13,370 nt of DNA from a virus. Taxonomy: Duplodnaviria > Heunggongvirae > Uroviricota > Caudoviricetes. The DNA is taken from IMG/VR virus record IMGVR_UViG_2909309443_000001. One strand, written 5' to 3'. Below the pieces are notes generated by a model. That model saw only the letters and a program-made list of their open reading frames with translations. It was not told the DNA's origin and did not search any database. The translations under genes were made by a program, and so were the position numbers. Below are positions 459 through 13,370 of this stretch, piece by piece. The number at the start of each line of letters is the position of its first letter. Position 1 is the stretch's first letter.

Positions 459-677
459 TTACATCCACATAATTTGCTGCCCTGACGGCAACGGGTGCGG
501 CCTTACGGCGTGGACTTCTCCCGGCTTCACGATGTATCTCTGTACCGACTCATACGTGATGAACGTGGCGCTGCAATTCACGTTCTGGCACTGGTGATAA
601 CGCTCTTTTGTCGTGTCAGTGATATAGCGACTTGTACGCGCATGTGCGGCATGCTGGCATAAAGGACAATGAAACAT
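459..677 (-). CDS. ogr: Ogr, zinc-finger late-gene transcriptional activator (Ogr/Delta family), 72 aa
   Basis: Internal ATG at 677-675 gives MFHCPLCQHAAHARTSRYITDTTKERYHQCQNVNCSATFITYESVQRYIVKPGEVHAVRPHPLPSGQQIMWM, which matches my recollection of P2 Ogr including the CxxC...CxxxxC zinc finger. The longer ORF to 740 in the track is probably an upstream extension. Confidence 0.9.
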   Translation of the reverse strand: MFHCPLCQHAAHARTSRYITDTTKERYHQCQNVNCSATFITYESVQRYIVKPGEVHAVRPHPLPSGQQIMWM

Positions 678-758
678 CGCGAGCACCTCTTCCGGTTTTG
701 TTGATGGTGCTATTTTAGTTAATTTATCCTTATAAAACAAACAGATAAAATAAAAACA

Positions 759-1922
759 TCACTCATCATCTTCTGTTTCATACTCCACATCAGAAAGCCT
801 GACCTCAAGCTCCAAGGACGTCGTGAAGCCGCTATTATTCAGAAAATGTGTCACCTTAGTGATTGTCCAGTCCTGCTCGTCTATGACGCGCTTAAAACCT
901 GACACTTTGACCGGCGTTTCCGTGTAAATATCTGCCCGGCCGGTAGCCAGGCTGATGGAGAACTCTGCTACACCCCGTTGCAGTTTATCCCACTTCGCCT
1001 GAGCGGCACGCATGGCCTGTGCTTTCGTGGCATATACCGTGGTCAGGGCAAAAACGTTGTCAGCCTCACCGGCCATGTATTCACCTTCGCGCGCTTCCGG
1101 TACTTTTGGCGCTTTCTTCTGCCTGACCGGTTTCGCTTTCGGGTGCTCCAGTGCGCGCAGGTGTTTCTCTTTCTTTTTGCGTTTCAGTTTTACCTTCTGC
1201 TTTTGCGGCTTCGGGTCTTTGGTGTGAAGCCACTTTGCCGTTACGCCGGTATAGGCTCCACGGTCAGCAATCGCAAAATGGTGGCGGTCGCCGTCGCTGC
1301 GGGTTATGGTGACCTGCGGGATTTTTTTACCGCTGGCCGTCACCCCCTGCCCCGCTTTGAGAAACAACAGTTTTCCCATTTTTACCGAGACCTCACCACC
1401 GTTGCGTTCTGCAAGACGGGTCAGGAATTTCGCATCAGACTCCTGCGACTGGTCGATGTGCGGGATTTTAATTCCTGCCAGTGACGGCGCGACACTGGCT
1501 TCCAGCCTGTTACGGGAGGCTATCGCCTCAACAATCGCACCGAGCGTGGTGTCATGCCAGGAGCCTTCACGGCGGGAATTGAGCGTCCCGCGAAAATCTG
1601 CACTCCGGGCGCGGATGGTAACCACATCCGGTGCGCCCCGGTGTTCAACCTCATCAACGGTGAATTTCCCTTTGCATACCAGGGCAAAACCTTTCCAGCC
1701 GATATACACCGTCAGGACAGCGCCACGAACCGGCAGCCCGACCTGCCCGTCGGCATCGTTCAGTTCAATATCAAGCTGGTCAGCCTCAAAGCCCCGGTTA
1801 TCCGTCAGGGTCATGCTCATCAGACGGTCGCTGATATTGCCGGTAATATCCCTGCTGTCGAGCATCAGCATGTAATCCGGTGTCAGCGTACTGCCTGCAT
1901 CAAATGTCAGCGCATCCAGCAT
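759..1922 (-). CDS. D: Tail protein D (P2 gpD family), 387 aa
   Basis: 387-aa ORF, the same length as P2 gpD. It sits between U and ogr as in P2. Its ATG overlaps the U stop (TAATG). Confidence 0.88.
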   Translation of the reverse strand: MLDALTFDAGSTLTPDYMLMLDSRDITGNISDRLMSMTLTDNRGFEADQLDIELNDADGQVGLPVRGAVLTVYIGWKGFALVCKGKFTVDEVEHRGAPDVVTIRARSADFRGTLNSRREGSWHDTTLGAIVEAIASRNRLEASVAPSLAGIKIPHIDQSQESDAKFLTRLAERNGGEVSVKMGKLLFLKAGQGVTASGKKIPQVTITRSDGDRHHFAIADRGAYTGVTAKWLHTKDPKPQKQKVKLKRKKKEKHLRALEHPKAKPVRQKKAPKVPEAREGEYMAGEADNVFALTTVYATKAQAMRAAQAKWDKLQRGVAEFSISLATGRADIYTETPVKVSGFKRVIDEQDWTITKVTHFLNNSGFTTSLELEVRLSDVEYETEDDE

Positions 1923-2401
1923 TATCCCGCCCCCGTCATACCCGTGAATTTAGTCGCCATACTGCCAGCCTTACCGATGAGCGATTCCGCCTGTTTACCT
2001 ATATCGCCATAAAGCGCGGCCAGTGATTCATCAACGCGGGTAAGTGACAGCGTAAAATCAATTTTCCGGGGTGTGCCGTCTGCAAAGAAAATACTCCCTG
2101 TTTCACTCACCCTGCTGATGACATACATGCCGTAAATCATGCCGGTGCCATCCAGCAACGGCCACGCCCGGCCTTCCTCTGCCATCAGCCTGAGCGTGGT
2201 CATCGTCAGCTTGCCGCCGGTCAGTTCGGGATAAAGCACACCGGCAAGCGTGATGTTTTCCTCACCCACACCGAGAAACTGAAAGGCATCCCGTTTACCG
2301 ATACGGGAATTTGACGGCCAGCGATAATCTGATTCACGCTGCATGGTCTGGTGTGGCAGCGTCTGGCGCATAAAAACAAACATACCTAACGCGAGCATCA
2401 T
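1922..2401 (-). CDS. U: Tail protein U (P2 gpU family), 159 aa
   Basis: 159-aa ORF directly downstream of T and upstream of D, in the P2 order T-U-D. Confidence 0.88.
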   Translation of the reverse strand: MMLALGMFVFMRQTLPHQTMQRESDYRWPSNSRIGKRDAFQFLGVGEENITLAGVLYPELTGGKLTMTTLRLMAEEGRAWPLLDGTGMIYGMYVISRVSETGSIFFADGTPRKIDFTLSLTRVDESLAALYGDIGKQAESLIGKAGSMATKFTGMTGAG

Positions 2402-2415
2402 TGTTCGTCACCTCC

Positions 2416-4863
2416 TTAACCGTCATGCATCATGCTGGCACGGGCGCGCGCACGTTTATCCCGCTCGTATTTTTCGAGTGCATCCTGTAACTGGCGGTCA
2501 AGCTGTGTCCCCGGCGCAGTACCACCCGTAAGGCTGATGTGATATTCGTTTTTACTCTGGTCTACATAAGAGCGGCCAGCCGGTGCCGTGACCGGCTGAT
2601 AAGCCTGATAGCCTGCATAAGAGCTGGTCGCCGGAATATACCCACCGGTGCCATACGTGGCGGCATGAGTCCTTGCGGCGGTCTGGTCAAGTGTGTCTGA
2701 CTCTTTGTTGATAACACCGAGTTTTTCCAGTACCCAGTCAATACCGCTGCGCAGTTTGTTGAACGCATTAAGCGGCAGCATCAGCGCGTCAGCCAGTGCC
2801 TGCCCGAACATGACGCCCGTGTCACGGCAACGGTTCAGGGTGTCCCGGGTGGCTTTGACCGGGGCAATCAGGTTTTTAAACCACTGCCACGCGGCCTGTA
2901 ACTTTTCGCCCAGCCAGTCAAACACCGGCTTAAGTGGCGTGAACAGTTCCCCCACCGGCGCAAATGCCGCTTTCAGCCCTTCCACCACACCGCCAAAGAA
3001 TGCGCTGACAGGCTCCCAATATTTACGGATAAGCAACGCCCCGGCGACAATGGCGGCCACCACGGCCACAACCGGCCAGCTAATCGCCCCGATGGCCGTC
3101 ATAACAGCACTGCCAACCGTCGTGAAGATTGCCCCCATTGCGCCTGCTGCCGCGATGATGGCATTGATGCCAGTGATAACCGGCCAGGCTACGAGGCCAA
3201 TGGCACCGATGACAGCAGTCAGCGCCAGTGCACCACCGACAATGAGGCCGATGGTTGACGCCAGTGATTTGTTTTTCTGTATCCAGCCGTCGAGTTTTAA
3301 CACATACTTTGTGGCCGTCTGCGTGAGCTTACGCAGTGCGCCTTCCTGCTGGTCAAACAGGTCAGTCCCCACCGCCTCATAAGCGGACTGAAACTCCTTA
3401 AAGTCACCGCCGAGGTTGTCCTGCATGATATTTACCAGCTCGGCGGTCTTCCCGTCTGAGGCTTTAAACGCAGCGGTCAGTTTGTCCAGCTTTCCAGTTG
3501 AGGCGGCAGTCATCAGCACGGCGGCGGCTGAGCTGGCCTCCTCCCCGAAAATGGTTTTCATGTATTCAGCCTGCTGGGCAGTACCGAGCCGGTTTTTCTC
3601 AAAACTGGCCTGCATTTCTTTCAGAATGGTAAATACTGGTCGGGTGTTTCCCTTACTGTCTGAGGTTTTCACGCCAAGCTCTTTCAGTGCATCCCATGCT
3701 TTTCCCGTCGGTGCCTGCAGGCGACTTAACACGGCACGGCTTCCCGTCCCCGCCATTGAGCCTGTGATTTTTGCATCATGCAGCGCCCCGACCATTGCGG
3801 CGGTTTCTTCAATGCTGACACCGGCATTTTTTGCCACAGGTGCGGCATAGGTCAGCGCATCGCTCATGCCGTCAAAATCGGCGGCGGTTTTGTTCATCGT
3901 CATGGAGAGAACATCCCCGATATGAGCGACCTTATCGTTTGAAAGCTGAAAGGCGGATTTCATCCCCATCAGCAGGGCGGCGTTTTCTTCCATCGTGCGG
4001 CGGTTCGCCAGCGCCATATTCAGCGTGACCGGCGTTGCCGCCTGAATGGCATCAACATCCCCACCCGCTTTCGCGATGATTATCTGTGCACCGGCCGCAT
4101 CATCCGCCGAGGCGGCGGTATTGTCGCCGAGCTGGCGCGCCTGTTTGCGTAGCGCGGCCATTTCGGCGGAATCTTTTGCCACACCGAGCACGGCCTGCAA
4201 TTCTGAGTTTTTCTGCGCAAACTCATAACCGGGCATCAGCAGCTTAACTCCGGCCATCGTTCCCGCCGCCGCAATCCCCACACCGGCAGCGCCCACCGAG
4301 GCCATATTTCCGGCCAGTTCCTTGCCTGCCTGATAACGCTGTTTTACTGCGTTAAGTTTTGCCTGTTGTGCACTGACACGCGCCAGTGCGTCACGCTGAC
4401 GGTTAAGCTGTGCGGTGGTTTCACTGATACGGTTTTTCAGTCCCTGCTCATTATGTGCAAGATTGCGGGTATTAATTCCCACAGCGGCCAGTTCCCGCTG
4501 CTGGCGTTTAATGGAATCTGTCAGGCGGTTATATTTCGCCTGTAAGTCCTCCGCCGCACGCTTTGCGGATTCCAGCACTTTCGCCTGAGCACGGGTCGGA
4601 CGTTCAGTGTTTTTAAACTGTGTGGCAAGGGCTTCGGCCTCCTGCCGAGCCTTTTCAAGTGCATGACCAGTCACGGCAAGCTGTGCGCTGGTCTTGCGAA
4701 ATCCCTCAATACGGGATGCGTGACCGTTCAGCTCGCGCAGTGATTTTTGTGTTTCCCGGATATCCCCCGACAGCGACTTACTCGCTGTGCGGATGGATTT
4801 AAACGGGCGGGATGCCTGGTCAACAGCCCTGAGCAATACCTGTAATTTTACATTGTTACTCAT
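2416..4863 (-). CDS. T: Tail tape measure protein T (P2 gpT family), 815 aa
   Basis: 815-aa ORF, the same length as P2 gpT. Ala/Gly-rich with coiled-coil N-terminal part and hydrophobic central segments typical of tape measure proteins. The E' remnant stop overlaps its start. Confidence 0.9.
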   Translation of the reverse strand: MSNNVKLQVLLRAVDQASRPFKSIRTASKSLSGDIRETQKSLRELNGHASRIEGFRKTSAQLAVTGHALEKARQEAEALATQFKNTERPTRAQAKVLESAKRAAEDLQAKYNRLTDSIKRQQRELAAVGINTRNLAHNEQGLKNRISETTAQLNRQRDALARVSAQQAKLNAVKQRYQAGKELAGNMASVGAAGVGIAAAGTMAGVKLLMPGYEFAQKNSELQAVLGVAKDSAEMAALRKQARQLGDNTAASADDAAGAQIIIAKAGGDVDAIQAATPVTLNMALANRRTMEENAALLMGMKSAFQLSNDKVAHIGDVLSMTMNKTAADFDGMSDALTYAAPVAKNAGVSIEETAAMVGALHDAKITGSMAGTGSRAVLSRLQAPTGKAWDALKELGVKTSDSKGNTRPVFTILKEMQASFEKNRLGTAQQAEYMKTIFGEEASSAAAVLMTAASTGKLDKLTAAFKASDGKTAELVNIMQDNLGGDFKEFQSAYEAVGTDLFDQQEGALRKLTQTATKYVLKLDGWIQKNKSLASTIGLIVGGALALTAVIGAIGLVAWPVITGINAIIAAAGAMGAIFTTVGSAVMTAIGAISWPVVAVVAAIVAGALLIRKYWEPVSAFFGGVVEGLKAAFAPVGELFTPLKPVFDWLGEKLQAAWQWFKNLIAPVKATRDTLNRCRDTGVMFGQALADALMLPLNAFNKLRSGIDWVLEKLGVINKESDTLDQTAARTHAATYGTGGYIPATSSYAGYQAYQPVTAPAGRSYVDQSKNEYHISLTGGTAPGTQLDRQLQDALEKYERDKRARARASMMHDG

Positions 4864-5135
4864 TCGTGTTTCCGCTTCGCCGGAGCGCCTTTTCGCGCCA
4901 TGTGATGAGTTCGGTCAGGCTCATGGGATACAGTTCTGATGGCGGCCAGTGAAATATCACTGCCACATCCGCCATCAGGTCATCGACCGAGAGATTTTTC
5001 GGGAACGTTACTGCACCGAGTTCGGCGACAAAAAACCGACCACCTTACCGGCCAGCGCCACAAGGTCAGGCAGTTCCAGCGCGGCGACTTCCTGCTCGGT
5101 CAGCATCGGTGCCGTCATGCGCGGCAGCACCTTAA
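4856..5135 (-). pseudogene. E: 5'-truncated remnant of tail chaperone genes E and E+E', with the -1 frameshift module intact
   Basis: My translation of the minus strand gives ...VLPRMTAPMLTEQEVAALELPDLVALAGKVVGFLSPNSVQ* ending at TAA 5010-5008. An in-frame TAG at 5211-5209 lies upstream and there is no ATG for a full-length E. GGT TTT TTG at 5037-5029 carries the T TTT TTG slippery heptamer. The -1 frame is open from 5035 to the TAA at 4858-4856, overlapping the T start. Confidence 0.6.
5029..5035 (-). other. Programmed -1 ribosomal frameshift slippery heptamer T TTT TTG of the E/E' tail chaperone pair
   Basis: Plus strand CAAAAAA at 5029-5035. On the minus strand it is in frame as TTT TTG within the E remnant, and the -1 frame continues open for about 57 codons. 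Confidence 0.6.
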
Positions 5136-5136
5136 G

Positions 5137-5298
5137 CCGGAGAACATCGGGTCGCTGGGCGATATTGAGAAAGTGGCAAAGGTCTTTGTCCGCAATGAGC
5201 TTATCCCGCTACAGGACAGGATTCGGGAAATAAACGGCTGGCTCGGTCAGGAGGTCATCCGCTTTAAAAACTACTCACTGGACACTGACAACGGCTGA
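5137..5298 (+). pseudogene. Q: 3' fragment of portal gene Q (C-terminal ~54 codons)
   Basis: Plus-frame translation ...PENIGSLGDIEKVAKVFVRNELIPLQDRIREINGWLGQEVIRFKNYSLDTDNG* ends at TGA 5296-5298, followed by a strong terminator and then cos. This matches P2, where Q is read toward cos. The upstream part of ORF 4939..5298 in the track is antisense to E/E', so that ORF is a chimera. Confidence 0.5.
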
Positions 5299-5303
5299 AC
5301 ATC

Positions 5304-5325
5304 GCCGCCTGCGGGCGGCTTTTTT
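5304..5325 (+). terminator. Rho-independent terminator of the Q (portal) transcript
   Basis: Perfect GC stem GCCGCC (5304-5309), loop TGCG, stem GGCGGC (5314-5319), then a T6 run (5320-5325). It is oriented for plus-strand transcripts only. Confidence 0.65.
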
Positions 5326-5467
5326 ACACCCCGTCATCACGCCCTCACACGCTCACCACCGCACAAAACACCCCGCAGACACACCAACGCCCCGGCGCAC
5401 AATCTAAACGCCATCACGACGCGCTCAGACGCAGAAAAAATAAAATCAGCACCACCGCCAGCGCGCA

Positions 5468-5486
5468 GTGCTTTCCCCGCCTCGCC
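5468..5486. other. cos site: 19-nt cohesive-end sequence of the P2/186/P4 family
   Basis: Plus strand GTGCTTTCCCCGCCTCGCC is the reverse complement of GGCGAGGCGGGGAAAGCAC, which I recall as the shared 19-nt cohesive end of P2, 186 and P4. Its position between the A-distal cargo gene and the Q 3' end matches P2 genome ends. Confidence 0.7.
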
Positions 5487-5637
5487 CGCCCGCTTCATGG
5501 GTCGGTTTGAATGCAGTTGAATTACAACTACCAAACCAAGCAATCCCTACTATTACGCAGAAAATGCATACTGAAATACCTCGTGCAAATTGATGCAGCT
5601 AAGTATGCATAGGTTTTATGCCTCAACGTATACGTTA

Positions 5638-7470
5638 TCAAACAGAGCCCTGTTCAAAAACAGTATCAAAATATGGTAGGAGAGGATAAGCACACAGAAA
5701 GAAAATCAGGATGCATGCATATGTCGTTGTTTCATCGTAACAAGCATTAGTATATAAATTACCATGTGCTAATTTATGTCTTAAGGTTGCCCCACTCTTT
5801 CTGTTAAAAAGAACATCGATAGTCAAAACAAGATTTTTAGAAAAGATACTTTCCAAATCATCTCTGCATTTATCTAGAAGCTGAGAAATACTTGTTGACT
5901 CCTCTAATCCCTTATCCAAATATCTAGTAGCATCCTTTCCACTAAGCTCATAATAATAACGAACCATACCTTCCATTTGTGGTATTAAAAGATAAGCTGC
6001 ACTGATGTAATCTCCCTGCCATAATTTGTAAAAGCCCAAATTAAAAATCTCCCTAAACTCCGGCTTGACAATTGGACTAGTTGTAACCAATTTAACGAAT
6101 GTTGACAACGTCAAGCCATGTTCTTGAGAAAGTACATAGCGAGCAGGTTCAAAGACACCGTTTACAAAAATCTTATGAGTAATCTCGAAATTTCTTAGAT
6201 ATTGATCAATAACAACATCATCACTCATATCCTTTTTATTATCCAACGGCGGGATTGTATATATCTTACGCCCACTCTCATCATTAATTTCTGTTCCAAC
6301 AAAACTAGAGAATAAACTTTTTTCTGATAATCTTAAAACTTGTTCCCTCATGCTTTCAATATTTTCAATCGGTGTTTCACTCATTAAAACTTTGAATATA
6401 TCGGGCAAAGAACGCCCCGTCAGTTTTTTTTCACTTTCAGCAACCAAGTCACTAATATCAATAGAATGGCTTAAAGTGACATATTCACTCCTTACTTCTT
6501 CTCTCAAATTAGCAAGTTGTTCCTTTAAATCTTCTATCTGTTGGCTATCACCACCGTACTGTCTTAATTCAGAGATAGCTGTTCTTAACCAAGAGATCTT
6601 ACCCATATTATCAGGTCGTTCTGTTGCAACTTTAATAGTAATATTTGCAGATGCCAGTTTACATCTCTTGGCACGTTCATACTCACCATTTTTTTCATAA
6701 ATAACTGCACTTGTCATATAAAGTGATTTTACAGCATCATAATATTTTTTATCTTTATGCTGCTCAGCCATCTTCTCAGCATTTTCCGCATACTGCAGAT
6801 TATACCCATCAAAATCACGCACCATAAACCAAGTCAAATTATTGAAACCTTCAAAGATTAATCTTTCATTTTGAATACTATAAAGAGAATGAATGGCATT
6901 TTTAATCGCCATGTTTCCTTCTGATTTTCTAGGGTAGACCATTTTATTAATGTGCAAAGCCCTAGCAATATAATCACGAGCAAAAATAAAGCAATTTAAA
7001 TCACTTTCATCCATGCTTTCGTTTTTTATTATTGGCTTTTCAATTGCTATATTTAGCATTTCAGCATAGGAATCAATTGCTTTAATTGCCACGTCTTTAT
7101 TTTTCCGATTATTACACCAAACAACATCATATATTCTTGATAACAAAAATGGATTGGTTATTTTTTGAGAAACATATAAAAGACAGTCATTCACCTGCTC
7201 ATCAAAATCTTCAGGCAATATTGATCTTTTATTACCCCAAATCATTTGGGGTTCAAATGATGGAGTGTTGTTAACAACTTGCAAATTGAAACTATATAGC
7301 ATACCAAAAAGAGATGCTAATTTTTTCTCTTTGGGGTTTTCTGATGACTCAGCAATCCCATCCAGATATTTTTTTATTTTATGTGCATGAAATGTAACTG
7401 GTATATGCATAAAAACACTATAATCTAGTGTTTCAAGCTCTTCCCTTGTAAGAACAAAGATATCATTCAT
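5638..7470 (-). CDS. AT-rich cargo protein (~610 aa) at the tin/old position; candidate anti-phage protein with a C-terminal HEPN-like Rx4H motif
   Basis: Long minus ORF whose base composition is far more AT-rich than the flanking phage genes. ATG at 7470-7468 is preceded by AAAGGTGAAAACG (GGTG 6 nt upstream). The track's longer ORF to 7575 starts at a TTG only 15 nt after the A stop. C-terminus carries ...ATLRHKLAHGN... (R-x4-H). No Walker A motif. No recognisable family from sequence alone. Confidence 0.75.
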   Translation of the reverse strand: MNDIFVLTREELETLDYSVFMHIPVTFHAHKIKKYLDGIAESSENPKEKKLASLFGMLYSFNLQVVNNTPSFEPQMIWGNKRSILPEDFDEQVNDCLLYVSQKITNPFLLSRIYDVVWCNNRKNKDVAIKAIDSYAEMLNIAIEKPIIKNESMDESDLNCFIFARDYIARALHINKMVYPRKSEGNMAIKNAIHSLYSIQNERLIFEGFNNLTWFMVRDFDGYNLQYAENAEKMAEQHKDKKYYDAVKSLYMTSAVIYEKNGEYERAKRCKLASANITIKVATERPDNMGKISWLRTAISELRQYGGDSQQIEDLKEQLANLREEVRSEYVTLSHSIDISDLVAESEKKLTGRSLPDIFKVLMSETPIENIESMREQVLRLSEKSLFSSFVGTEINDESGRKIYTIPPLDNKKDMSDDVVIDQYLRNFEITHKIFVNGVFEPARYVLSQEHGLTLSTFVKLVTTSPIVKPEFREIFNLGFYKLWQGDYISAAYLLIPQMEGMVRYYYELSGKDATRYLDKGLEESTSISQLLDKCRDDLESIFSKNLVLTIDVLFNRKSGATLRHKLAHGNLYTNACYDETTTYACILIFFLCAYPLLPYFDTVFEQGSV

Positions 7471-7589
7471 CGTTTTCACCTTTTTCAGTATAAATTTGCA
7501 CACATTATTATTAGCAACATAATTATCAATAGTTAACACATGCAGATAAACAGCAATTTTACTATTATGCAACAAATTAAATCAGATGT
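7471..7589 (-). promoter_or_regulatory. AT-rich intergenic region between A and the cargo gene; putative cargo promoter and RBS
   Basis: About 119 bp of AT-rich DNA between the A stop (TAA, 7592-7590) and the cargo ATG. Contains TATACT and TTGATA hexamers on the minus strand and the GGTG RBS. No exact -35/-10 pair with ideal spacing was confirmed. Confidence 0.3.
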
Positions 7590-9872
7590 TTATTGCTCTG
7601 AATAACAATAAAACCAACTCCACTCATCAGCGACCGGATACGTAAATTTTTTCCCGTTGTAATTTACGATCGCGCCACGCGCCAGCGCCTCAAGCTCCCA
7701 TCGCTGCGGCCTGATACCGTTCTGAGCAAGGTCAACGCGGATACGGGTAATTTGCATTCTTTCCGACCGGGTCAGTCTGGCCGATGGCGCTATTTCATGC
7801 GGTTTTAACGGTCTTCCGTTTCTTTGCTGACGGTTTGGTCTTCTCAGGCCGTGTTTTAATGCGCCCCTGAGCGCCCTCACGACCTCCGGGTCATTCCATT
7901 CGATAACACCGTCATCAACCAGATTAAGCACTGCTGCGGCGTGCTCAGAAGGCGTGGGAGCCGGTAACGAAGTATCACCACCAGTGAGCTTTCCACAGTT
8001 ATTGACAGGACTCCGAGGCGCGGCGATGCCGCTTTTTAAAGTCAAAGGCTCAACGACCGGAACTTTCGGCACAATGCGCCAGTCCGTCGTTCTGGTGATA
8101 TGAATATGACGCGCGCCGAGATGCGGCGCGTAAATGCCGACCACTCTCTCGACTTCTTCCTCGTACTCGTTAACGTCATCCGACGGGCTACGGGCAACCC
8201 TGACAGTCTGACAATCGCGCGGGACATTTGCCCCACCCTGCGCGCTGATATACAACGCAAAATCACCACTGTCTGCAGCAGCGCGAGCAGCCTCGACGCG
8301 TTCGTCAAACTCATCAGCAATGCTGACGCCGCGAGGCAATTTGCGTAGTTCACGGTAAGCCCCCATTGTCGGCAGACCAACCGTTTTAAATTGCGGAATG
8401 CGCCACGTTGACGCCCATGCGGTAACAGCCGCAGCTGTGTCTTTCAGCGGCCTACCGGTATCATTATCGAGCTGACCATCCAGTGCATAGCCGTCGATGT
8501 TTTTTGAGATGTATTTCGCGATATATCCCGCAGCACCGCCCCGGTTAAGGTGTTTTGCCTGAAAACGGTTTCGCGCAGCTCCTCTTTCGTCGCCATCCTC
8601 TTTGAGCGCGTAGCGACGCATGATTTCAATAATCTGGTTACGCTGGCGTGGATTACAAAAAAGCATCATATGCCAGTGCGGCGTTCCGTCGTGGTGTGGC
8701 TCGACGACACGCAAACCGTAGACCTGTAAATCATTATCCTTGAATGCCGTGCGCATCAGGCTCCAGATATGGCAGAGATAACGCTGCGCATCCTTTGGAT
8801 TAAATGCCTCATCGTTCCAGCCGTGATTTAGCTGGACGGTTTTACTTTCGCCTTTTCCGACCTGACGTGTCGGGTGATACTTTGACGGCGCGGTAAGCGT
8901 GATAAACATCCCCACATCACCCTCTGCGGCGGCGTAACGCTCAATACCGGCAATGGTGTTCATCAGCTCCATCCGGCGAATTTCAGGATTAGAAATACTG
9001 CCCATCACCTTACTGATAAGGTCGATGCGTTCGCCGGTTTCCCTGTTTTCAAGGTCACACGATTTAAGAAATTCCAGATTTGCCTGGCGGCGTGCACGCA
9101 CATCACGAATGGCATGTTTACTGGCATAAGGTGAACGGTCTTTATTGACCTCCCCGACAGCAATCAGTAACGCCTCATGCCAGCGCATACGCTGGCCTTT
9201 AAGCTGACTAATCCACCACTCATCGTTAAACAGGCGGGCAATGGCAGAATATGCCTGCCTCGTGGTCATCTGTCCTTTACGGTATTTTTTCCAGTAGAGC
9301 GGGGAAATATTGAAAGCACGTGCAGCGCCAGCAACATGACCATAGAGGTGAGCCTGCGCCTCATCCGTAAACAGCGATTCTTTTTCGCCATGCGCATCCA
9401 CCCAGGCATCGCAGAGTTCCTCATACATAATGAAAAGCTGCGATGAGATACGGGCGGCAAACTTTTTCAGCTCCTTATCATTCATCCCCGGCAGACGCGC
9501 ATAATGGTCACGCTCTGCCAGAAACAGCAACGACGCGTCGGTGTTCATTTCATGGCGCTGATTCACGCGCTCAATGCGCGGCCATAAACGACGCTGAAAA
9601 GTGGATGTGAGGAAATAAAACCCGTGCACCGGGCTTTTATTGCGCCGGATGTAGTCATAGCGTGAAGTAAACAGCGAGCGCAAAAAGTAAGGCAGGCGGT
9701 TAATCGTGGATAAAACACCTTGCACCTGACGCATCTCGTCACGTGTAAGGGGTCTTTCGCGCCCGACGGCCTCGCGTGGCGCGTTCCATGCATAAGCACC
9801 GGTAAACGCCTTACCGGTGCCTGCAGCAAATGCTGACGGAGGGACAAAACGCCCGGAGGCTTTAACGGCCAT
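7590..9872 (-). CDS. A: Replication initiation endonuclease A (P2 gpA, rolling-circle initiator), ~760 aa
   Basis: First ATG at 9872-9870 gives MAVKASGRFVPPSAFAAGTGKAFTGAYAWNAPREAVGRERPLTRDEMRQVQGVL..., a length and N-terminus consistent with P2 A. The track's 774-aa version starts at a TTG. It follows orf83/B as in P2. Confidence 0.88.
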   Translation of the reverse strand: MAVKASGRFVPPSAFAAGTGKAFTGAYAWNAPREAVGRERPLTRDEMRQVQGVLSTINRLPYFLRSLFTSRYDYIRRNKSPVHGFYFLTSTFQRRLWPRIERVNQRHEMNTDASLLFLAERDHYARLPGMNDKELKKFAARISSQLFIMYEELCDAWVDAHGEKESLFTDEAQAHLYGHVAGAARAFNISPLYWKKYRKGQMTTRQAYSAIARLFNDEWWISQLKGQRMRWHEALLIAVGEVNKDRSPYASKHAIRDVRARRQANLEFLKSCDLENRETGERIDLISKVMGSISNPEIRRMELMNTIAGIERYAAAEGDVGMFITLTAPSKYHPTRQVGKGESKTVQLNHGWNDEAFNPKDAQRYLCHIWSLMRTAFKDNDLQVYGLRVVEPHHDGTPHWHMMLFCNPRQRNQIIEIMRRYALKEDGDERGAARNRFQAKHLNRGGAAGYIAKYISKNIDGYALDGQLDNDTGRPLKDTAAAVTAWASTWRIPQFKTVGLPTMGAYRELRKLPRGVSIADEFDERVEAARAAADSGDFALYISAQGGANVPRDCQTVRVARSPSDDVNEYEEEVERVVGIYAPHLGARHIHITRTTDWRIVPKVPVVEPLTLKSGIAAPRSPVNNCGKLTGGDTSLPAPTPSEHAAAVLNLVDDGVIEWNDPEVVRALRGALKHGLRRPNRQQRNGRPLKPHEIAPSARLTRSERMQITRIRVDLAQNGIRPQRWELEALARGAIVNYNGKKFTYPVADEWSWFYCYSEQ

Positions 9873-10137
9873 ATGAGCCAAAAGCCTCTGAACAACGCCT
9901 GCTGAGTTGCTCAACCTGCGCGTTTAAATCAGCAAAAGACTTTGCGCTTCCGGTCAGAATATCGTGATGCATCAGGCCGGAAACAAGCTGGCTTAATTTC
10001 GGGTAATAACCAACCACCGCCAGCCATTCCTGACCGGCGTTTTTACCGCTTTCCGCTCTCTTTTTCTCGTGGAGAATAAACTGGAAGCTGTCACTGGTAA
10101 CGACATAACGTTCGCCAATTTCAATACGAATACTCAT
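9862..10137 (-). CDS. Small hypothetical protein, P2 orf83-like (91 aa)
   Basis: ATG at 10137-10135 overlaps the stop of the upstream ORF (ATGA). Positioned directly upstream of A. Confidence 0.65.
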   Translation of the reverse strand: MSIRIEIGERYVVTSDSFQFILHEKKRAESGKNAGQEWLAVVGYYPKLSQLVSGLMHHDILTGSAKSFADLNAQVEQLSRRCSEAFGSYGR

Positions 10138-12320: not shown

Positions 12321-12389
12321 CTCTATATAAAGATTACATTTTCACCATTTGCTACCAAGATGGTGAATACAGCGCCGGAGGGCTTTCTT

Positions 12390-13370
12390 ATGGCAATTAA
12401 GAAGCTCGATGATGGTCGCTATGAAGTGGACATTAGACCTCGCGGTCGCGACGGAAAACGCATCCGCAGGAAATTCGAAAGAAAAGCTGAAGCACTAGCA
12501 TTTGAGCGATACACAATCGCCAATGCCAGTCAGAAAGAATGGGGAGGCCAGCGAGCAGACCGCCGGACTTTGAGTGAGTTGCTGGACATCTGGTGGAAAT
12601 ATCACGGGCAAAACCACGAGCATGGAACAAAAGAGTTTAATCATCTACTCAAAACCATCAGCGGCATAGGTGATATACCAGTGAGCAGGATGAGCAAAAG
12701 GGCTTTGATGGATTATCGTTCCATGCGACTACGTGATGGTATCAGTGCCGCAACGATAAACCGTGACATGTACCGATTATCCGGCATGTTCACAAAATTA
12801 ATTCAATTGGATGAATTTTCCGGGCAACACCCAATTCACGGACTGCCACCACTGGCGGAGGCCAACCCTGAAATGACGTTCCTGGAAAAAGCAGAAATCG
12901 AAAAACTGTTAAATGTTTTGGCTGGTGATGACTTACTTGTCGCGCTTTTATGTCTGAGCACTGGAGGAAGATGGACGGAAGTTGCCACGCTAAAACCAGC
13001 ACAGATTACAAATTGCAGGGTTACCTTCCTGAAAACCAAAAACGGTAAAAAGCGAACCGTGCCGATTTCTGAGGAACTGGAGAAAAAAGTTAAAGAGGAG
13101 GCCAGCGCCAAATTATTCAAAGTTGATTATGAGAAATTTTGCGGGATTTTACGCAGAGTGAAACCTGATATACCACCCAATCAGGCAACCCACATCCTGC
13201 GGCATACATTCGCAAGCCATTTCATGATGAATGGGGGCAATATAATCGCACTGCAACAGATTCTGGGACATGCGAGCATTCAGCAGACGATGGCCTATGC
13301 GCACCTTGCGCCTGACTATCTGCAAAATGCCGTCGCTCTGAATCCACTAAAGGGCGGAGTGACGTTATAA
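12390..13370 (+). CDS. int: Tyrosine integrase (P2 Int family), 326 aa from the second ATG
   Basis: MAIKKLDDGRYEVDIRPRGRDGKRIRRKF... matches the P2 integrase N-terminus as I recall it. C-terminal region has the HxLRHT...Y catalytic pattern (ATHILRHTFASHF...MAYAHLAP). GGAGGG lies 8 nt upstream of ATG 12390. An alternative ATG is at 12360. Stop TAA is at 13368-13370, the window end. Confidence 0.9.
   Translation: MAIKKLDDGRYEVDIRPRGRDGKRIRRKFERKAEALAFERYTIANASQKEWGGQRADRRTLSELLDIWWKYHGQNHEHGTKEFNHLLKTISGIGDIPVSRMSKRALMDYRSMRLRDGISAATINRDMYRLSGMFTKLIQLDEFSGQHPIHGLPPLAEANPEMTFLEKAEIEKLLNVLAGDDLLVALLCLSTGGRWTEVATLKPAQITNCRVTFLKTKNGKKRTVPISEELEKKVKEEASAKLFKVDYEKFCGILRRVKPDIPPNQATHILRHTFASHFMMNGGNIIALQQILGHASIQQTMAYAHLAPDYLQNAVALNPLKGGVTL

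Follow-up and report, generated by a model that had tools for sequence, protein, structure and literature searches.

A perfect inverted repeat lies between a cargo gene and the cos site in the 13,370-nt stretch of viral DNA analyzed here (the window). We asked what it is: a terminator for the neighboring gene, a mark of the cargo module boundary, or a part of the phage itself. The window proved to be a P2-like (Peduovirus) prophage whose orientation is reversed relative to the P2 map, with the following landmarks.

459-740, minus strand: ogr
759-1922, minus strand: D
1922-2401, minus strand: U
2416-4863, minus strand: T
5134-5298: 3' end of Q (portal gene remnant)
5468-5486: cos
7590-9914, minus strand: gpA
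12360-13370, plus strand: integrase

The cos site sits between the Q remnant and the gpA-proximal hotspot, which is the P2/P4-type position. The segment from 5250 to 5750 is 99% identical to Escherichia phage vB_EcoM-569R9; the megablast match to other P2-like phages stops at about 5520-5530, and GC content falls from about 0.58 to about 0.35 across 5500-5650. The cargo gene of the hotspot encodes a 645-amino-acid protein that has a DUF7380 domain and a weak DUF4209 match and corresponds to the PADLOC candidate PDC-S39 (E = 1e-84). It appears to be a candidate single-gene defense system. Neither DUF7380, DUF4209, nor PDC-S39 is mentioned in two papers on the P2/P4 hotspots. A contig scan with the cargo protein alone returned no relatives, and these were gathered by a homologous-protein search followed by retrieval of the encoding contigs. 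All of the homologues recovered (53 to 67% identity; Klebsiella, Kosakonia, and Enterobacter) occupy the P2 slot A-cargo-cos-Q.

On the other side of cos, the prophage carries a deletion junction at 5134-5135 (context, 4863-5298). Up to 5135, the sequence is a contiguous T-E'-E tail-gene match found in many E. coli prophages, and from 5134 on it corresponds to the last ~55 codons of the portal gene Q of phage vB_EcoM-569R9. The genes from E to most of Q, about 19 kb for tail, lysis, and capsid functions, are absent at this point, so that either the prophage is defective or a chimeric join has produced the sequence. The open reading frame at 4939-5298 on the plus strand is a spurious fusion across the junction, and the junction itself was absent from every complete E. 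coli genome in our collection. In the "complete" E. coli chromosomes H23, H25, H26, H40, H47, and H59, the prophage region is found at about 4110-4354. This suggests that position 1 of those records lies near the start of prophage gene A, the records having been rotated to the phage replication gene and not to dnaA.

The inverted repeat exists as the preliminary description had reported it. Its arms, ATGCATACT at 5564-5572 and AGTATGCAT at 5602-5610, are 9 nt long, are 100% complementary, and enclose a 29-nt spacer. The placement given there, downstream of the cargo gene and before cos, was also correct: the repeat begins 28 nt past the stop codon of the minus-strand cargo gene (5638-7575) and lies 78 to 124 bp from the 19-nt cohesive-end sequence at 5468-5486. 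We then compared the repeat with chance. Across its full length, the window has 10 perfect 9-mer inverted-repeat seeds with spacers of 3 to 50 nt, against 3.2 ± 2.2 in dinucleotide shuffles. These seeds fall at six loci, so 9-bp inverted repeats are not rare there. Locally, dinucleotide shuffling produced an equally good repeat in 3.3% of trials for the 339-nt intergenic stretch and in 1.9% for its AT-rich part, 5520-5637. The sequence ATGCAT is a 6-bp palindrome, and two copies of it already form a 6-bp inverted repeat. The 9-bp repeat arises because two such palindromic copies pair together with three extra complementary bases (ACT/AGT), and this motif content accounts for the modest local excess over the shuffles.

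A repeat so close to a stop codon might form an RNA hairpin that terminates or stabilizes the DUF7380 transcript, and the preliminary description had suggested that it may be terminator-like. An isolated 47-nt segment does fold with the 9-bp stem (-12.7 kcal/mol), and the terminator scan found no canonical terminator between the cargo stop codon and cos. The stem itself, however, is AT-rich, with only 3 G-C pairs in its 9 bp, and it closes a loop of 29 nt where about 3 to 8 nt would be expected. The tail is TTTCTGCG, and no U/T tract lies 3' of the stem in either sense (cargo-sense tail, TTTCTGCGTAAT; plus-sense tail, AGGTTTTATGCC). Scanning of both strands called nothing at 5564-5610, while the Q terminator at 5304-5319 was called. 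RNA folding, which the preliminary description had proposed as a check, also spoke against a hairpin. The minimum-free-energy fold of the cargo-sense RNA lacks the 9-bp stem (z = -0.73), and each of the nine stem pairs has a pairing probability of about 5% in its 146-nt cargo-sense context. The plus-strand fold includes the stem, but with a z-score of only -0.35, and neither strand's z-score is significant.

Comparison across loci gave the same answer. RNAalifold returned no consensus structure for 120 cos flanks, Rfam had no match anywhere in the window, and no conserved, covarying hairpin was found in homologous loci. The copies of the region in 55 complete E. coli genomes are ≥99% identical and hence hold no covariation information. 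The 53-67% cargo homologues lack the proximal arm and read TYYGATTT where the window has it; absence of the repeat from homologous loci is what had been named beforehand as counting against the original idea, and for the inverted repeat this is what we observed. In addition, one cargo homologue locus (L006) and phage 186 (t95b) have a true terminator upstream of the motif array described below. Loop, tail, AT-rich stem, and fold in context together rule out a Rho-independent terminator, and we consider a hairpin that terminates or stabilizes the cargo transcript to be extremely unlikely.

We next looked at the cos side of the repeat. The 19-nt cohesive-end sequence of the window (GGCGAGGCGGGGAAAGCAC on the minus strand, GTGCTTTCCCCGCCTCGCC on the plus strand) matches exactly what NC_001895 annotates as cosR. 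When IMG/VR was scanned with the cos core, 120 loci were obtained; with other loci added, this gave 123 distinct right-arm flanks, which were aligned gap-free, with the cohesive end's first base as the anchor. In this alignment, a short motif recurred at fixed positions, all to one side of the cleavage site, as would be expected of a cosB-like element, at frequencies of 19 to 96% against a background of 0.2% per position.

-124, TGCAT: 43% of the 123 flanks
-120, TGCAT: 19% of the 123 flanks
-111, TGCAT: 66% of the 123 flanks
-101, TGCAT: 69% of the 123 flanks
-35, TGCA: 82% of the 123 flanks
-29, TGCAT: 96% of the 123 flanks

At least two copies were present between -135 and -92 in 92% of the flanks and at least three in 57%; the control stretch from -300 to -257 never held two. 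Information content was 1.5 bits per position at -37 to 0 and 0.59 bits at -130 to -95 and was 0.05 to 0.08 bits beyond -135. Conservation thus drops to background level beyond about -135, so that in the window the conserved backbone ends at ~5616-5620 and the variable hotspot starts there. The array motifs are spaced roughly one helical turn apart. Only these short phased cores are conserved in the array, with the intervening bases varying, and the TGCAT core recurs as the -35/-29 doublet in the cos core. Motif variants include a TTGCATTA type with a 10-bp period, of which some lineages (for example, L027) have four to five direct copies, and a GTGCATGG type.

Both arms of the inverted repeat fall on copies of this motif, and two further array motifs lie in the spacer between them. 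The parts of the element, with the adjacent features, are as follows.

5468-5486, minus strand: 19-nt cohesive-end sequence (cosN region)
5487-5522, minus strand: cos-proximal conserved core, -1 to -36, 1.5 bits per position
5511-5515 (plus coordinates): TGCAT at -29 in the core
5518-5521: -35 TGCA of the core, degenerate (TTCA) in the window
5564-5572, minus strand: cos-proximal arm, an extra, lineage-specific ATGCAT at -82; the minus strand reads AGTATGCAT
5583-5588, minus strand: array motif 3 at -101, inside the repeat spacer, degenerate TTGCAC where the flank consensus is TTGCATG
5593-5597, minus strand: array motif 2, TGCAT at -111, inside the repeat spacer
5602-5610, minus strand: cos-distal arm, which is array motif 1; the minus strand reads ATGCATACT, and TGCAT starts at -123 from cos
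5638-7575, minus strand: neighboring cargo gene (DUF7380/DUF4209 protein, PADLOC candidate PDC-S39), listed for context only

The conserved core flank TGCAACTGCATTAAAACCG...AAGCGGGC was found on the right-arm side, where the window reads TTCAACTGCATTCAAACCGACCCATGAAGCGGGCG when set against the 123-flank consensus; the -35 TGCA is the degenerate part. The slot of motif 1 (-124 or -120) holds TGCAT in 62% of the 123 flanks, and in P2, 186, PSP3, and P4 motif 1 stands at -124, -123, or -120. The other copies in phages 186 and PSP3 and in the P2 reference are likewise at the positions given above. The proximal arm is a different matter. TGCAT occurs anywhere between -91 and -48 in only 4 of the 123 flanks, and the ATGCAT copy at -82 is confined to the window's lineage.

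A second dyad, G+C-rich and of the form CGCCAG-N2-CTGGCG(CGG), lies between the distal array and the cos core, at -75 to -55, in many P2, 186, and P4 flanks (~0.43 bits). Examples are phage 186 (L143) and P4 (L141, 11560-11580). It is absent from the window (5541-5561) and from the P2 reference.

The preliminary description had also taken the repeat to mark the boundary of the cargo module. It was right about the position, since the distal arm is the last conserved element of the backbone, and wrong about ownership. The cargo-side DNA of the flanks (-400 to -150) falls into 74 unrelated clusters, and the array is present in 67 of the 74. It accompanies cargo as different as old/tin in P2, vbhT in vB_YpM_22 and STYP1, paraMORC3 in PhiR44_1, and an open reading frame in pro483. 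The homologues of the window's own cargo gene all have a block such as CACATGCATGCTTAGYTGCATGAGYTTGCATGTG, in register with CCTATGCATACTTAGCTGCATCAATTTGCACGAGG of the window, and the same block is found beside unrelated cargo. In satellite P4, ATGCAT, TGCATG, and TTGCATG immediately follow psu, at -124, -111, and -101 exactly, and six P4-like satellites from IMG/VR have the three copies at the same positions. Because it is present with unrelated cargo and in satellite P4, the array belongs to the phage backbone beside cos and not to the cargo.

The occurrence of the array in P4 also points to a function. According to published work, P2 and P4 have no homology except for the 55-bp cos, and the 19-nt cohesive ends lie in this 55-bp conserved core (Ziermann and Calendar 1990, as cited in PMC3931495 and PMC9594776). 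The functional common ground of the two is packaging by the P2 terminase. We therefore compared more divergent phages. The phage phiCTX has CGCAGR at -108, -98, and -83 and again at -37 and -28, and HP1 has CACGGAAA at -102, -38, and -8. Across these three lineages, the layout appears to be kept while the motif changes with lineage, and the motif follows the packaging machinery: helper and satellite share it, and phiCTX and HP1 differ.

Given these observations, we favor, at a probability of roughly 0.6, the reading that the TGCAT array of the P2-like cos flank, in which the inverted repeat sits, is part of the packaging signal, with putative terminase sites. The distal arm is array motif 1, and the proximal arm is the extra ATGCAT at -82 that is peculiar to the window's lineage. 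The array would supply recognition sites for the P2 terminase, to which either the small subunit gpM or gpP, through its N-terminal helix-turn-helix region, would bind. In concert with the doublet near cos, the sites of the array would place the enzyme for its staggered cut, in the manner of the R sites in lambda cosB. We infer both the binding of terminase and an effect on packaging from the sequence comparisons. The array is a well-supported conserved element, and the function we propose for it is a putative one. The preliminary suggestion of a protein-binding element is plausible on this reading, though for a different reason and on a different scale, the arms being TGCAT copies of the P2/186/P4 cos-flank array.

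The packaging reading draws support from the TGCA(T) core, which occurs twice inside the 55-bp cos core, and the cos core is described as required for packaging. Cosmids of P4 with longer cos flanks gave transduction of 0.035 compared with 1.7e-5, a difference of about 2000-fold (PMC9594776). This gain agrees with a packaging role for the array and is only suggestive. Other observations weigh against the packaging reading. The published 55-bp core does not include the array, which spans -124 to -96. Two copies in the window are degenerate (TGCAC at -101 and TTCA at -35), and the same sequence is found in the isolated phage vB_EcoM-569R9, so individual copies must be dispensable. The phiCTX repeats lie within an attP-cos region annotated with several classes of repeat, and they could serve integration. 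Our literature search, which had the Ziermann and Calendar 1990 deletion study outside its reach, found no binding or packaging data for the array and no cosB-like description, array included, in P2-like phages; the array itself may be under-described.

Relative to the cos of P2 and P4, the window shares the exact 19-nt sequence, the conserved flank to about -36, and the same TGCA(T) core. It differs in the array and repeat beyond the 55-bp core, in the degenerate -35 and -101 positions, and in the extra copy at -82.

In lambda, cosB consists of the sites R3-I1-R2-R1, with the small terminase subunit gpNu1 binding R sites of a 16-bp motif. The P2-like array resembles it in general terms, with short motif copies on one side of the nicking site over ~100 to 130 bp, some of them inverted. 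The two differ in that the array core is about 5 to 8 bp rather than 16 bp and in that there is no IHF consensus between the array motifs: the consensus WATCAANNNNTTR had no match in the window and thus none between the proximal and distal motifs. P2 also differs in that its packaging substrate is a circular monomer. By analogy, the array may correspond to lambda cosB, and whether cosB or cosQ is the better analogue would depend on which chromosome end is packaged first.

The array might instead serve as the operator through which a transcription factor of the host or the phage controls the hotspot genes, with the inverted repeat as a dimer-binding dyad. CytR is one such candidate, its half-site GTTGCATT resembling the array motif. 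P2 has copies of both GTTGCATT and ATTGCATT, and in its genome the annotated starts of the old-tin transcript follow the array at a distance of 25 to 55 nt. The array is also enriched in inverted repeats of 8 bp or more, which are present in 30 of 120 flanks and in 1 of 120 shuffled ones. Yet the partners of these dyads vary between lineages. Motif 1 pairs with motif 3 in 186-like lineages and in the nearest cargo relatives (TCACATGCA/TGCATGTGA), with motif 2 in P4 (an 11-bp repeat), and with the -82 copy in the window; in two cargo relatives (L007 and L014), motif 3 pairs with an added inverted copy. These dyads stem from the palindromic nature of the core, to which some lineages add an inverted motif 1, and not from a conserved hairpin.

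Position argues against an operator as well. The distance of the array is fixed to cos and not to any gene, and the array is present whichever orientation the adjacent cargo gene has. In P4, the end of psu lies just before the array, from which no gene is read outward. The same core recurs within the cos core at -35/-29. CytR operators further need flanking CRP sites, and a search near 5480-5700 for TGTGA-N6-TCACA, allowing up to 2 mismatches, found no CRP-like site, although GTTGCATT-like half-sites are present. We consider an operator for the hotspot genes quite improbable as the role of the array, which may nevertheless have a promoter-proximal or transcriptional role in some phages. The late promoters activated by Ogr/Delta have a dyad of the form TGT-N12-ACA, and by eye the array did not match it.

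In the P2 genome (NC_001895; L142, 3425-3485), the old-tin mRNA starts are at 33424 and 33426. Because they lie 25 to 55 nt from the TGCAT array, the upstream region of the old promoter overlaps the putative terminase sites, and occupancy of these sites in the late phase could affect old/tin expression.

Another reading is that the repeat is a functionless product of chance and the array is kept only as a homology anchor for the swapping of hotspot cargo. The array does lie exactly at the edge of the variable region, and given two ATGCAT palindromes, only three extra bases must match to make the repeat. An anchor, however, would be expected to be conserved as a block, whereas here only phased short cores are kept and the bases between them vary. 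P4, moreover, keeps the array though its hotspot lies on the other side of cos. An array maintained solely as an anchor thus seems improbable to us. The packaging reading already takes the inverted repeat itself to be a by-product, and under it the repeat as such is most likely lineage specific and incidental.

A more speculative version of the packaging reading gives the extra copy a purpose. The distal array would be an undescribed second part of the packaging signal that fixes the inner edge of the hotspot. Motif 3, and with it an ancestral motif 1-motif 3 dyad, would have decayed in the window's lineage, and the new ATGCAT at -82 would have restored a terminase-binding dyad in compensation. 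We regard this as rather unlikely.

Two observations were made on related loci. In L007 and L014, ~40 to 80 nt past the cargo stop codon, there is a perfect 13- to 15-bp hairpin, GCATTAGTTTGCATC-GTTTTTT-GATGCAAACTAATGC. It consists of an inverted copy placed after motifs 2 and 3, and it is a second, independently added inverted copy within the cargo family. In E. coli CH436 (L002, NZ_CM166356.1), an IS21-family element, ISEc12 (istA/istB), is inserted inside the cos-proximal arm, at the equivalent of 5569-5574 of the window, with an apparent TACTGA target duplication. The array and the cargo gene are there ~2.5 kb from cos, and this insertion could serve as a natural test of a cis requirement for the array.

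In all likelihood, then, the inverted repeat is a commonplace component of the packaging signal and not a terminator of the neighboring defense gene. It is best annotated as part of the cos flank of a P2-like prophage, neither a terminator nor a cargo-borne element. As a finding about the repeat, this is an ordinary one. The array can serve as a sequence marker for the inner boundary of the P2/P4 defense hotspot, about 130 bp from cos. It further suggests that packaging in these phages uses a functional signal longer than the usual 55-bp core. A longer signal would be relevant to the design of P2/P4 cosmids and transducing particles, for which the ~2000-fold gain from longer flanks has been reported without explanation (PMC9594776).
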